Positions 44,536-48,549 of a stretch of 64,000 bases of DNA are shown piece by piece. Within the stretch, counting starts at the first letter, position 1; every line of letters starts with the position of its first letter. A program made the translations under genes and the position numbers. The notes beneath the pieces were generated by a model. The model ran no database searches, was not told the DNA's origin, and saw only the letters and a list, made by a program, of their open reading frames with translations. The stretch spans positions 128,001-192,000 of the forward strand of contig JAHPZH010000001.1 in assembly GCA_019058315.1 (NCBI GenBank), read 5' to 3'. Source of the DNA: Candidatus Helarchaeota archaeon. Lineage in GTDB: Archaea; Asgardarchaeota; Lokiarchaeia; Helarchaeales; RDOG01.

Positions 44536-45561
44536 TTATTCTCTACCCAATTCATATCCATAAATTCCTTTATGGATAATTTCACCTTTTTTTAATTGAT
44601 CAAGACCATGAGAAATTTTCATTAAAATTTGAGGTTTTGTTAAATCTATGATATCTAGTAATTCTTTATTTTCTGATGCAAAATTTGCTAATTGTCTTCT
44701 ATTACCCTTTTTAATATGAAATAATATTCTAATTACTAACATTGAATTAAAACTGGAAATGCTTCTTAAGACATTATCTCCCGAAATTAATTGAATTTTA
44801 TCTTCTAAATTTAAATCATTAATAATTGCTTGTAATAATTGTAATTTTTCATTTTTATTTCCCCTAAGATGTTTAGTAAAAATATTCCAAAATTCTTTTT
44901 CTAATCCATACTCAATTAGCCAACTTCGAAAAATTTCTATTGAAAAATAATTTTTTATTTTACTGATATCTTTAATTGCTTCTTTTATGACTAATTTTAA
45001 CATATCTGTTTTAAATTTCATAGTTCGAAATTTATTCTGTAAAAATTCGTATATTTTAGTGTCTTTATAAGCTTCTTTTAATTTCTTACTATCGCTAATA
45101 TTTGCTTCAAATAATCTTTTCTGGATTTCAACTATTTCTAAATCATTTATTTCTTCAGGTTCAAATTTATACTCTTTTTGAATTTGTGTTCCTTTCGAAG
45201 CATATTCTCCAGATTTTAAAATATCAAATTCTCGCTGTAATAGATTAATATCTTTTGCAGTCGGAAGAGAATCCATTTTAGAGATTATTTCTTGCATATT
45301 TCGCAGTATTGCTAATTGTTGTTCTTGAAAATCTTTTTGGTCTTTTCTTAACTTTTCAATCTCTGAAAAATCCTGAACAACAGGTTTGGCTTTTTTTTTC
45401 TTACTTTTTTCCTTAACTTCTTCTATACAATCAACACAATAGAATTTCTTTCTATATTGAGTTAAATCATCTTTAGGAAATTTTTTTTCACAATTACTAC
45501 AAAAATAATCTTTAATTTCTTCTTCAGCATCTTCTTCAATATCAAATAAAAGTTTACTCAA
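44536..45561 (-). CDS. Hypothetical protein: N-terminal C4 zinc finger, coiled coil, C-terminal winged-helix-like end
   Basis: CSNC-x17-CVDC; helical middle; ISHGLDQLKKGEIIHKGIYGYEL resembles a wHTH recognition helix plus wing; TTG start 2 nt after the upstream stop. Confidence 0.7.
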   Translation of the reverse strand: MSKLLFDIEEDAEEEIKDYFCSNCEKKFPKDDLTQYRKKFYCVDCIEEVKEKSKKKKAKPVVQDFSEIEKLRKDQKDFQEQQLAILRNMQEIISKMDSLPTAKDINLLQREFDILKSGEYASKGTQIQKEYKFEPEEINDLEIVEIQKRLFEANISDSKKLKEAYKDTKIYEFLQNKFRTMKFKTDMLKLVIKEAIKDISKIKNYFSIEIFRSWLIEYGLEKEFWNIFTKHLRGNKNEKLQLLQAIINDLNLEDKIQLISGDNVLRSISSFNSMLVIRILFHIKKGNRRQLANFASENKELLDIIDLTKPQILMKISHGLDQLKKGEIIHKGIYGYELGRE

Positions 45562-45563
45562 TA

Positions 45564-45938
45564 TTATTCCTCCTCTAACCCAAATTTCTCTTCTAATTTA
45601 TCTATTAATTCTAAATCAACTGTTTCTTGAAAATGAGAGAGATATAATTTCGGGTTTTTTAATATTATTTTATGATTTTTCTTTACCCAAAGAAAAAAAT
45701 TAAATAACATTTTAAATCCATTAATTAAATCACCATTATTTTTTGTTTTCGGCTTTTCGCTCACTTCTTTTTCGGATTCATCAATATAAGCCGTTAATGC
45801 TCCTCTAATTAAGTCAGTTACATTATTAAAATTCATTTCTTCTGCTTTTTTAGTTAAAATCTCCTTGGAAATTTGAGTTCTAAATGTTATAGGCTTCTTT
45901 TTTTCTTCATCTTTTAATTTTGGTCTGCCACGATTCAT
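45564..45938 (-). CDS. Ribbon-helix-helix-like DNA-binding protein
   Basis: MNRGRPK..KKPITFR (beta ribbon) ..KEILTKKAEEM..NVTDLIRGALTAYI (two helices), typical RHH/CopG pattern. Confidence 0.7.
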   Translation of the reverse strand: MNRGRPKLKDEEKKKPITFRTQISKEILTKKAEEMNFNNVTDLIRGALTAYIDESEKEVSEKPKTKNNGDLINGFKMLFNFFLWVKKNHKIILKNPKLYLSHFQETVDLELIDKLEEKFGLEEE

Positions 45939-46079: not shown

Positions 46080-46410
46080 AAGTATCAAGAAAAAATTTGA
46101 CCTCAAGAAATTTTAATTTTGATCATAATCAAAATCCTGAAAAAAATTAATTCAAAAAAAAATACATAATCCAGAAAAATTTGATCTTGAATTAAGTCTG
46201 AACTTGAAAAAAAATTTGTTAAAAAAAAAATTTTTTTAGTTTGTAATCTCAAAAAAATTTTAAATTGAAAAATCCAAATTTCAAAAATTTTATTCAAAAA
46301 AAATCTCAAAAAATCTGTCTTCAAAAAATGTTAATTATGTAAATCTTGATTTTGAAAAAACTTAGTCTCAAAAAATTTTATTTTAGAATTAAAAGATCGA
46401 AAAAAATTTC
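46080..46410. repeat. Strand-biased A-tract low-complexity segment (repeated YTCAAAAA / TGAAAAAA)
   Basis: YTCAAAAA near 46151, 46248, 46280, 46293, 46305, 46320, 46367; TGAAAAAA near 46138, 46205, 46353. Confidence 0.6.
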
Positions 46411-46530
46411 TTATGAGCATGATTCATAATTTAACCTTGATTTTATTAATTTTCGATTATATGATAAAAATAAACTGGTTTATTCTAAAAATTTTAACAA
46501 AAAAATTATGAAGATATATATATCTCCTCG

Positions 46531-46920
46531 TATTTTATTCTATTACTGATTCTCTTATTTTTGAGATTGGAATGATCCTTATGGAACATATGACGTAGCG
46601 AATAGGATTCCGGAAATTCAAGAAATCACTTTAGGATCAAAATTTTAATCTAGTGATTTAAAGGTCAATAAGTATTACATATTTATGACTTTATAAATTC
46701 CTGGATCTTATTCAGCGAGTATCGTTCGGAGGTTAAATAAGCCAAAACAAGGCTACTATGCGATTCGTTGAATAATAAAAGGATCAAATTACTAAAAAAT
46801 TAATTCTATAAATTACAATAGAGATTTTTCTAATATGGGTTAGGCTACACCATTTACCGCATTCTAAGCGCAATATAGGAAGGTTTATAAACAATGGACT
46901 GATCATAGAATACAAAATAA
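46531..46920 (+). ncRNA. Candidate large structured non-coding RNA of unknown class
   Basis: Hand-found helices: 46536-46543/46905-46912, 46573-46580/46779-46786, 46600-46618/46695-46713, 46623-46630/46652-46659, 46660-46674/46680-46692, 46709-46720/46763-46774, 46740-46743/46751-46754, 46823-46836/46873-46885; G-U pairs favour the + strand; no ORF of 60 aa or more. Confidence 0.6.
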
Positions 46921-46989
46921 ATCAAAAATGAAAAAAAAGAAATAAAATAATGAAATGTCTCTAAAAACTGAAAAATAGGTGGTGAAAAA

Positions 46990-47211
46990 TTGGTAAAAAA
47001 AATCAAAGTCAAAGTACTCTCGGTAAATGGACATGAAACTTATTCAGTCGCAATTCAAAAAATTCCTGAATTTATGGAATCACAATTAGACAATAATCAT
47101 GTTGCATATTGTGAACCTATGAAAAAGATTGTTGAAACTGAAACAGAACTAGAATATATCTTAGAAATGGTTAGTGAAATTACAATCATCCCTAAAATTC
47201 GTGGAGGTTAA
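46990..47211 (+). CDS. Ubiquitin-like (beta-grasp, ThiS/MoaD/SAMP-like) small protein ending in Gly-Gly
   Basis: 73 aa; N-terminal IKVKVLS..GHETYSV strands; C-terminal EITIIPKIRGG; TTG start after AGGTGGTGA. Confidence 0.65.
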   Translation: MVKKIKVKVLSVNGHETYSVAIQKIPEFMESQLDNNHVAYCEPMKKIVETETELEYILEMVSEITIIPKIRGG

Positions 47212-47212
47212 T

Positions 47213-47938
47213 ATGAAAAATCAGAAAAATAAACAAATTCGCTTAAAATTATCTCATGATTGGTCCAAGTTTAATGGAAAAGAATTTGAAAAAGTTAGAA
47301 ATCAACGAAATTTTCAGATTGGTGAAATTTTAAAGAAAGCAGATCAATTTTATTTGACCACAAAAAAGGGTCTTAAAGAAATTACGAAAAAATTTGCTTA
47401 TAAAAAAATAATCAAACATGAAAAGATTAACCCTGAGGAACTTACGAAAGGTTATTTTCCTAGAAGCGGATATCGAAGATCATTTGGTTCTAAAAAGAAA
47501 ATTGTGATAAAACATAACAAAACACCTGGCCTATACTGCTATGAACGCTACTTGGGAGCATCAATTAAAGCAGGAATTTCAATAACTCTCCATACAAGTA
47601 ATAAAAAAGTTAAAGATCTCATTAAAATATTTAATGCTCGAATTGGTCGTCCATATCAGCCACCAACATTTTCTCCTGAAGCTATAAACAAGGCAAAGAA
47701 AGAATTGAAAAATTTGATAAAAATTAATAATCAATTAAAAGTTGTAAATGATAATTTGGTGGTTACTAGTAAAAATGGAAGAATTTATAATATAAATCTT
47801 CTTTCTGGAGCTGTTTCATCTAAAAAGAAAAGTTATATTTGTACTTGGAGTTCAACCACAAGACTACCTTTACCTGATGAAATTATTGCTAAAGCTTTAA
47901 CTATTGCTTATAAACCAAAACAAATTAGAACGCTATAA
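47213..47938 (+). CDS. Basic hypothetical protein, translationally coupled to the ubiquitin-like gene
   Basis: ATG 47213 one base after the upstream TAA, preceded by GGAGGT; Lys-rich; C-terminal VVTSKNGRIYNINLLSG..YIC..LPLPDEIIAKAL..IRTL. Confidence 0.75.
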   Translation: MKNQKNKQIRLKLSHDWSKFNGKEFEKVRNQRNFQIGEILKKADQFYLTTKKGLKEITKKFAYKKIIKHEKINPEELTKGYFPRSGYRRSFGSKKKIVIKHNKTPGLYCYERYLGASIKAGISITLHTSNKKVKDLIKIFNARIGRPYQPPTFSPEAINKAKKELKNLIKINNQLKVVNDNLVVTSKNGRIYNINLLSGAVSSKKKSYICTWSSTTRLPLPDEIIAKALTIAYKPKQIRTL

Positions 47939-47974: not shown

Positions 47975-48012
47975 AAAAAGCCGGGAAATTAAGGATCTAA
48001 AGGTGTCAATAC

Positions 48013-48294
48013 ATGTCTGGCGAAGGTTGGAAGACTTACAATCGACGAATAAGATATCGAATGAATAATGCTATTAAGAGGCTCAAAAATAATATTAATT
48101 CTAATATCTTTATTGAAATTTTTTTAAAAAAACCAGTTAAACCACGAGGTTGTCCATGTTGTGCTTATTCAAAAAAACATTATATGTCCCCAGTTAGAAT
48201 TAACCATCCAAAGAAGAATAAACACCATAACAGCACTCTAATGCGAAATTCCTATCAAATACTTGCTAAATTAAAAAAATCTACAAGAATTTGA
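48013..48294 (+). CDS. Small basic protein with CPCC and HPKKNKHHN motifs
   Basis: 93 aa, R/K rich, AAGGTG RBS; paralog of the next ORF. Confidence 0.65.
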   Translation: MSGEGWKTYNRRIRYRMNNAIKRLKNNINSNIFIEIFLKKPVKPRGCPCCAYSKKHYMSPVRINHPKKNKHHNSTLMRNSYQILAKLKKSTRI

Positions 48295-48300
48295 AGTCAA

Positions 48301-48549
48301 ATGTATATAAAGTTTAAAAATCGATTCAAAAGAAGACAAATAAAAGGCTTACGTGCTAGAATTAGGTCAGATTTAACCCATAAAAAATTTGATGATGCTA
48401 ATAATTGGTTCTTACAATTACATTATAGATACTACTATTATCATGCTCGTAGATCCCATCCAAAACATAATCTTCATCATAATAATACAAGAAATCGTTA
48501 TTTTATACGAAAATTAAGGGTCGTAAAAGCCTTTAAACAAAAATTTTAA
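48301..48549 (+). CDS. Small basic protein with HPKHNLHHN motif
   Basis: 82 aa, R/K/H rich; shares a motif with the upstream ORF and is in the same frame. Confidence 0.65.
   Translation: MYIKFKNRFKRRQIKGLRARIRSDLTHKKFDDANNWFLQLHYRYYYYHARRSHPKHNLHHNNTRNRYFIRKLRVVKAFKQKF

Follow-up and report, generated by a model that had tools for sequence, protein, structure and literature searches.

A conserved Asgard archaeal gene pair encoding a small Gly-Gly-terminated protein and a basic, cysteine-bearing partner

Two adjacent genes of a Helarchaeota genome encode a small protein that ends in a free, invariant Gly-Gly and a strongly basic partner with an invariant Cys, and the two products are predicted to form a complex in which the Gly-Gly tail lies along the Cys-bearing segment of the partner. 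The pair lies in the window analysed here, a stretch of 64,000 nucleotides (contig C3:128001-192000 of G000, a genome of 5.8 Mb in 12 contigs). In the literature that we searched the pair is undescribed, and it looks like a stripped-down relative of ubiquitin-like or sulfur-carrier systems. Our preferred reading, which we hold tentatively and at a little below an even chance, is that the two products form a cognate complex: the small protein would offer a Gly-Gly tail of the ThiS/ubiquitin type to the invariant Cys of a DUF7737-related domain, possibly of the E2/RWD kind, with an E1 acting in trans. The elements of the pair are as follows.

46978..46985, + strand: Shine-Dalgarno-like sequence GGTGGTGA, 4 nt 5' of the TTG start of the small gene, as read from the sequence
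46990..47211, + strand: gene of the small Gly-Gly-terminated protein (73 aa, isoelectric point (pI) 5.6, TTG start), a candidate ThiS/MoaD/ubiquitin-like protein
47203..47208, + strand: Gly72-Gly73 codons GGA GGT, which double as the Shine-Dalgarno sequence of the partner gene in this genome
47213..47938, + strand: partner gene (product of 241 aa, pI 10.3), in translational coupling with the small gene
47234..47422, + strand: conserved N-terminal domain of the partner (about residues 8-70), beta-rich and outside the predicted interface
47663..47935, + strand: C-terminal domain of the partner (residues 151-241: helix, four-strand meander, Cys210 segment, helix), DUF7737-like, its model matching UBC/RWD-like folds
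47840..47842, + strand: Cys210 codon TGT, invariant in all family members examined
47876..47878, + strand: Asp222 codon GAT, invariant, at the start of the interface helix

The gene pair and its Gly-Gly end

The small open reading frame (ORF) closes with a TAA stop at 47209-47211, directly after ...EITIIPKIRGG, and the ATG of the partner at 47213 stands one base beyond this stop. We place the partner start at this ATG and not at the GTG at 47174, as alignments of homologues begin at the former. The 73-aa ORF and the ATG one base past its stop had been reported in the original prediction, and both are read in the sequence, as is every peptide string that was quoted with them; the partner is also basic, as had been described, and carries a Cys in its C-terminal domain (Cys210, within residues 151-241). 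The observation was therefore confirmed, and its interpretation as a ubiquitin-like protein coupled to a protein that might accept or process it is supported in part. The partner holds 54 Lys and Arg versus 16 Asp and Glu, and only one of its two Cys residues (109 and 210), Cys210, is conserved; the small protein is mildly acidic. The GC content of the AT-rich window is about 30%, and that of the pair locus is 0.26.

Both ORFs are genes, far beyond chance ORFs: the two stay side by side in at least 12 distinct contexts, among orthologues whose identity falls to 20-30%. The genome of the window has one copy of the pair, which is found again in Asgard metagenome-assembled genomes (MAGs) labelled Hel-, Hod- and Lokiarchaeota; word-indexed searches gave close homologues of both proteins in MAGs with the labels Helarchaeota and Hodarchaeota. 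With a profile of the small protein, 25 members were retrieved (52-85 aa in the gene calls, full-length sequences aligning as 70-75 aa), and the partner profile, run in a full HMMER scan, gave a family of 45 clusters at 50% identity, 59-379 aa in length, without any fusion to a large protein. Of 61 related genomes, those with the partner are the genome of the window and 3/3 genomes of one sister family; none of 50 genomes sampled from the next family has it at a meaningful score, the sole match (G058, E 0.0035) being weak and probably spurious. Nearly every partner gene with readable 5' DNA is preceded by a small gene of 64-85 aa, which is 70-73 aa long except in L002 and L045. There are two exceptions, L018, which is the tandem second copy of a partner gene, and L047, a short contig on which a small basic protein precedes the partner; the pairing is otherwise obligate. 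The partner gene is tandemly duplicated in G006, and three members of the partner family (P0019, P0056 and P0057) show domain shuffling, the variants, one each, having two C-terminal domains, two N-terminal domains, or the C-terminal domain first and then about 270 unrelated residues.

The most constant feature of the small protein is its end. In an alignment reaching down to 20% identity, 29/29 small proteins of 70-75 aa stop directly after Gly-Gly, and the only invariant columns are Gly14, His15, Gly72 and Gly73. The terminal Gly-Gly is found in each translated small gene (window, L001, L004, L016, L020, L021, L025, L027, L028, L044, L046, L068 and L070). The original prediction had cautioned that the Gly-Gly could be incidental, with GGAGG present only as the ribosome-binding site (RBS) of the coupled downstream gene, and the window, L001 and L004, in which the codons GGA GGT/GGG lie 8 nt 5' of the partner ATG, would fit such an origin. 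However, the codons are GGT GGT in L025 and L046, GGG GGC in L021 and GGT GGA in L027, and Gly-Gly is kept even where the gap from the small gene to the partner start widens to 38 nt (L046), 92 nt (L070) or 104 nt (L027). In L046 and L027 the partner has its own purine-rich, Shine-Dalgarno-like stretch just 5' of its start. Because Gly-Gly holds with varied Gly codons and with gaps of up to 104 nt, selection, as judged from the orthologous sequences, acts on the protein end and not on the RBS. The caveat was not borne out, and an RBS origin of the Gly-Gly, rejected on the codons and spacing of the orthologues, retains scarcely any probability.

The predicted complex and the partner domain

The complex model of the pair reached an ipSAE (interaction prediction score from aligned errors) of 0.78 (0.78, 0.79 and 0.76 in three runs), and the best of three controls gave 0.00. 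The mark for this score was reached by 58/80 solved complexes and by 2/110 mismatched pairs, counts that are approximate, as our own alignments were used. The three runs share at least 92% of their contacts, and it is unlikely that the model passed from a memorised structure, because we know of no like complex. On the partner side, the predicted interface comprises residues 151-164, 172, 209-219 and 222-241, all in the C-terminal domain; on the side of the small protein it comprises residues 8, 10-15, 35-38, 40, 45-47, 65 and 67-73, and it takes in the invariant Gly14, His15, Gly72 and Gly73 of the small protein and Cys210 and Asp222 of the partner. The contacts with the least predicted error join tail residues 67-70 with helix residues 225-231 and with residue 211. 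Residues 209-219 of the partner touch the tail of the small protein, and its sheet face is laid on the helix that follows. The model supports binding of the pair through the Gly-Gly tail, and the suggestion that the tail would meet the Cys region agrees with the prediction, which puts the tail along the Cys210 segment. An apparent charge co-variation between tail residues K69/R71 and partner residue 223, noticed by eye, was dropped, as L025 breaks the pattern.

This predicted arrangement resembles, by analogy with established structures, that of a closed E2~ubiquitin conjugate: the small protein rests with its sheet face against the helix that follows the Cys, and its tail runs over the Cys segment. 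The contact residues of the small protein would fit the beta1-beta5-beta3-beta4 face and the tail of a beta-grasp protein, a fold that we infer and that is not a computed one. In established E2~ubiquitin structures, the Ile44-type face is the surface with which ubiquitin packs against the crossover helix of the E2. The pair also shares with the molybdopterin synthase MoaD-MoaE a small Gly-Gly protein and a neighbour predicted as a complex, with the tail next to conserved residues; in contrast to MoaE, the partner is strongly basic and has neither the MoaE fold nor its sequence, and the pair has no molybdopterin gene context.

By conservation the partner falls into three parts, namely the N-terminal domain (G37 invariant; L13, W17 and F25 near-invariant), a basic, variable linker in which an S-K-x-K motif is near-invariant, and the C-terminal domain (151-241). 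Cys210 and Asp222, but not Lys227, are invariant in all partner sequences examined. When the partner was modelled alone with AlphaFold2 (AF2) from a 5-sequence alignment, the predicted local distance difference test (pLDDT) was 43 overall and 60-80 over residues 160-240, and the model contains a helix (155-171), four short strands (175-203), Cys210 and a second helix (221-233). In an exhaustive alignment of this model against 48,161 PDB representatives, the UBC-like fold (E2/UEV/RWD) dominates, with about 36/50 listed chains at low Z (4-5.7). The matches (Z, root mean square deviation, aligned residues) include FANCL 3k1l (5.0, 2.9 A, 67), RWD 2daw (5.0, 3.9, 84), Ubc9 4y1l (4.8, 3.5, 76), E2S 1zdn (4.7, 3.8, 85), Atg10 3vx7 (4.5, 4.2, 86) and the bacterial E2 8tyz_C (4.5, 4.0, 85), together with many further E2, UEV and kinetochore RWD chains and also frataxin-like folds. 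Foldseek against the PDB with the same model gave nothing at E <= 0.001, and feature searches of the ESM Atlas with the partner and with its C-terminal part gave nothing usable. We regard the E2/RWD-like character of the C-terminal domain as a lead, not a result, based on this model.

The predicted core, a helix, a four-strand meander, a Cys-bearing stretch and a helix, would be of the kind seen in the UBC fold of E2 enzymes and in minimal E2-like proteins (Atg10 and the bacterial Bil/CBASS-type E2 8tyz). The catalytic Cys of an E2 enzyme follows strand 4 and precedes the crossover helix. In the partner model Cys210 is placed between the fourth strand (201-203) and helix 221-233, which would be the same place; this equivalence is positional and not a superposition.

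The C-terminal domain is weakly but specifically DUF7737-like, and the strength of this likeness is moderate. In Pfam searches, DUF7737 (PF24879) matched below threshold, the window protein scoring 14.6 bits versus a gathering cut-off of 27 bits, and 7/30 partner members gave weak matches (best E 0.0088). With hhalign, the C-terminal profile matched a set of five genuine DUF7737 domains, taken from a different Asgard genus, at 61% (E 8e-5; controls <1%), and Cys210 aligned with the Cys in their LCIVP motif. When the partner model was compared by shape with the ESM Atlas, DUF4132+DUF7737 clusters came at rows 1, 2 and 6, row 1 having a template-modelling score of 0.40 by query with 140 residues aligned over 23-241. 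The resemblance of the partner C-terminus to DUF4132-type proteins, which had been proposed, is therefore real but weak for the DUF7737 module, at a level below the Pfam threshold, and does not extend to a DUF4132 part, as neither a DUF4132 Pfam match nor a fusion was found among the 45 partner family representatives. The beta-meander and Cys strand of DUF7737, the C-terminal module of the bacterial DUF4132/MolR-like giants, align with those of the partner, whereas the archaeal protein is 4-7 times smaller than these giants, and it differs from DUF7737 itself in lacking an insert of about 25 residues before the last helix. DUF7737 is not always paired, because two genes of another Asgard genus that join a Ras/Roc small GTPase domain to a C-terminal DUF7737 (L040:697-1833 and L043:109-1845) have no small Gly-Gly gene within 1.5 kb. 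An extension of these likenesses would make DUF7737 a minimal UBC-fold domain, E2-like and with a catalytic Cys, that has so far gone unrecognised, and the pair the smallest natural ubiquitin-like protein-E2 unit, served by an E1 in trans and an archaeal counterpart of the bacterial DUF4132-DUF7737 giants; we consider this unlikely.

The complex model also bears on the main rival of our preferred reading, a purely non-covalent obligate heterodimer in which the small protein regulates or stabilises a basic, perhaps nucleic-acid-binding partner, its tail threads a narrow pocket, and Cys210 is buried and structural. Residues 67-73 are all in contact in the model, the small protein models poorly alone (pLDDT 45) and well in the complex (84), and the pI of the partner is 10.3, all of which such a heterodimer would explain, as it would the lack of a linked E1 or JAB in any context. 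Cys210 moreover sits in a hydrophobic strand (I-C-V), and the Cys is kept in the Ras-fused DUF7737 domains that have no small Gly-Gly gene. However, a tail that fills a pocket should tolerate other small residues or an extension, whereas the Gly-Gly-stop is absolute in 29 diverged members; this pattern is that of proteins with an activated carboxylate, and the tail motif matches the ThiS family of the same genome. We therefore judge the non-covalent heterodimer somewhat unlikely, and rank it directly after the preferred reading and ahead of a sulfur-carrier role.

The small protein and its possible activation in trans

The small protein resembles ThiS in its tail. Two of the nine ThiS-family genes of the genome end in LPKIKGG and LPKIAGG, a hydrophobic-Pro-x-x-Gly-Gly pattern like that of the small protein, and hhalign matched the small family to this ThiS set at 64-71% probability over the last 21 residues only (reversed and unrelated controls <1%). 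In the complex model the small protein has a pLDDT of at least 84. An ESM Atlas feature search with it returned only unnamed phage-type clusters (0.92), with ThiS at 0.81, and a fold search with its AF2 model (pLDDT 45) was empty; PDB sequence searches with the profiles of both proteins gave chance matches only. The proposal of a ubiquitin-like, beta-grasp protein is supported by the ThiS-like tail and not by Pfam; a beta-grasp is a candidate fold that would fit the tail and the predicted contacts.

With carriers of the ThiS/MoaD/SAMP/Urm1 type, which are served by E1 enzymes of the ThiF/MoeB/UbaA type, the small protein shares a length of about 70 aa and a free, invariant C-terminal Gly-Gly, and its gene, as in ThiS/MoaD-type systems, adjoins that of the protein predicted to receive the tail. 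It differs from these carriers in having no Pfam ThiS or ubiquitin match, a likeness confined to 21 residues, an invariant Gly-His in the first hairpin and no linked E1, and its partner is unlike MoaE, ThiG, CysM and TtuA.

In the reading that we prefer, the first product would be a small protein of the ThiS/MoaD/ubiquitin type whose working part is the free Gly-Gly end, and the partner a basic two-domain protein with a DUF7737-related C-terminal domain of alpha-beta4-alpha fold, of the E2/RWD kind. According to the model, this domain would grip the beta-sheet face and the tail of the small protein and set the tail beside Cys210 and Asp222. One of eight E1-like enzymes encoded elsewhere could adenylate the Gly-Gly end, the activated end might then pass to Cys210, either as an E2-like thioester or in a sulfur relay, and the free basic N-terminal domain and linker of the partner may engage the target.

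Activation in trans by an E1 of the same genome is possible because the genome holds E1-like, ThiS, E2 and JAB genes elsewhere, namely 8 ThiF-family (E1-like) genes, the 9 ThiS-family genes, about 5 UQ_con (E2) genes, several ubiquitin-like genes and several JAB genes. Three complete Ub-E1-E2-JAB clusters (C10:103-106 kb, C2:154-157 kb and C6:266-271 kb) look like eukaryote-like ubiquitin cascades. No match to ThiF/E1, UQ_con/E2 or Prok-JAB was found in the 64-kb window, and the E1 closest to the pair, at C3:106304, is about 68 kb away. The locus at C3:104804-108418 (L012) encodes a JAB/MPN+ protein (357 aa) and then a 363-aa protein in which a ubiquitin-like N-terminal part of about 90 residues is fused to a ThiF-type E1. 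The statement that the pair occurs without E1, E2 or JAB accordingly holds for its neighbourhood only (the window and six contexts).

Several results weigh against the preferred reading. For the small protein, AF2 modelling alone from a 5-sequence alignment gave a pLDDT of 45, without the expected helix or last strand, and the ubiquitin-like Pfam families (PF02597, PF00240 and related ones) gave no match at E up to 10 in 11 members. For the partner, no likeness to UQ_con was found (0.2% in hhalign against the E2s of the same genome, and no HPN motif), and Pfam matches to UQ_con, RWD, UEV and Prok-E2 were absent from 30 partner members. Cys210 may be structural rather than catalytic, because the same Cys is kept in DUF7737 domains that are fused to Ras GTPases and lack a nearby small Gly-Gly gene. 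With regard to activation, no E1 or JAB, and no E2, is linked to the pair in six longer orthologous contexts, and none of the E1 orthogroups follows the occurrence of the pair across 7 related genomes, in a rough comparison that left out 11 E1 loci and used incomplete MAGs.

The same tail and the same predicted burial would also serve a sulfur carrier and its user enzyme, as in MoaD-MoaE, ThiS-ThiG and CysO-CysM. Here an E1-like enzyme would thiocarboxylate the Gly-Gly end, and the sulfur would go to a cofactor, to RNA modification or to Fe-S, perhaps via a Cys210 persulfide. The ThiS-type tail, which in the model is buried in the partner as in the carrier-synthase complexes known from established MoaD-MoaE structures, and the frataxin-like folds among the fold matches of the partner speak for such a role, as does a 2x[4Fe-4S] ferredoxin gene after the pair in one clade, although this neighbour is clade-specific. 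The partner is, however, unlike MoaE, ThiG, CysM and PP-loop enzymes, and neither a cofactor motif nor a nucleotide motif occurs in its domain of 90 residues. DUF4132 has been loosely linked to molybdate metabolism, which would favour a sulfur-carrier role, but the expression of moeA and moeB was unchanged in the same Deinococcus study (PMC8533742). On balance we regard this role as distinctly unlikely.

Genomic neighbourhood and significance

Beyond the two genes, the following elements of the locus are conserved to some extent.

46531..46989, + strand: conserved non-coding leader 5' of the pair, which at about 82-87% identity with L001, L002 and L004 is conserved as much as the coding part
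48301..48549, + strand: candidate third gene, encoding a very basic protein of 82 aa; similar small basic proteins, weakly aligned, follow the partner in other clades

The gene-free stretch before the small gene is about 0.5-0.75 kb long (46246-46989), the similarity beginning at 46531 in L004, and gene-free leaders of 0.3-1 kb precede the pair at distant loci too (about 950 nt in L070, 640 nt in L027 and 600 nt in L068). The leader may be a long 5' untranslated region or an RNA; an Rfam search of the locus and six related loci found no family, with only a sub-threshold U2 match (E 0.074). On the 3' side, compared with L001, L002 and L004, the window has an additional segment of about 290 bp (47980-48272) with the first of two small basic ORFs (48013-48294), and the second (48301-48549) is kept in all three, the L001 counterpart having 79 aa. 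Basic proteins of 69-80 aa are encoded 3' of the partner in L027 and L070 and 5' of it in L047. The small basic protein may be a third component of the system.

The wider surroundings vary. On the Helarchaeota contig L001 the neighbourhood is the same as that of the window (leucine-rich-repeat protein, CoA-transferase, thiolase and TATA-binding protein), and in other contigs the flanks differ. In the sister family (L016, L020, L021/L018 and L068/L069) the pair lies between a gene for a conserved 211-aa protein without a Pfam family and one for a 2x[4Fe-4S] ferredoxin of 82-86 aa, after which comes a homocitrate-synthase-like gene. Divergent from the pair in the window, at 44536-45938 on the - strand, are genes for a ribbon-helix-helix (RHH)-type protein (124 aa, weak PF01402 match) and for a protein of 341 aa that has a CxxC...CxxC zinc ribbon at its N-terminus, a stretch that is not kept beside the pair in L004 or at distant loci.

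Such surroundings raise the question of a toxin-antitoxin, defence or mobile-element cargo pair with a superficial likeness to ubiquitin-like proteins. The coupling of two genes, one for a small acidic and the other for a larger basic protein, the low GC (0.26), the adjoining RHH regulator, an integrase 1.3 kb from one orthologue and the patchy occurrence among related genomes would all suit a unit of this kind. Against this, the pair is single-copy, a related MAG has it at the same place in the chromosome, flanked by housekeeping genes, no toxin match was obtained with PADLOC, PHROG or Pfam, and an invariant terminal Gly-Gly is not a feature of antitoxins; searches of PHROGs, PADLOC and NCBIfam returned nothing relevant. 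We consider a pair of this type very unlikely.

Among known organisms, the Asgard archaea are those most closely related to eukaryotes, and ubiquitin cascades of a eukaryote-like type are already present in them. The pair described here would add a parallel ubiquitin-like or sulfur-carrier route beside the three ubiquitin clusters of its genome. In Deinococcus radiodurans, the drA0165-drA0166 operon, in which DRA0166 carries DUF4132, is strongly induced on depletion of the DdrO repressor, which places one DUF4132 protein among the strongly induced members of the DNA-damage regulon (PMC8533742). Through the DUF7737 link, the archaeal pair (73 + 241 residues) may serve as a model, small and easy to handle, of the large DUF4132/MolR proteins of bacteria. 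If DUF7737 were indeed E2-like, the DUF4132/MolR family would gain its first mechanism, and the early history of ubiquitin signalling a new branch.

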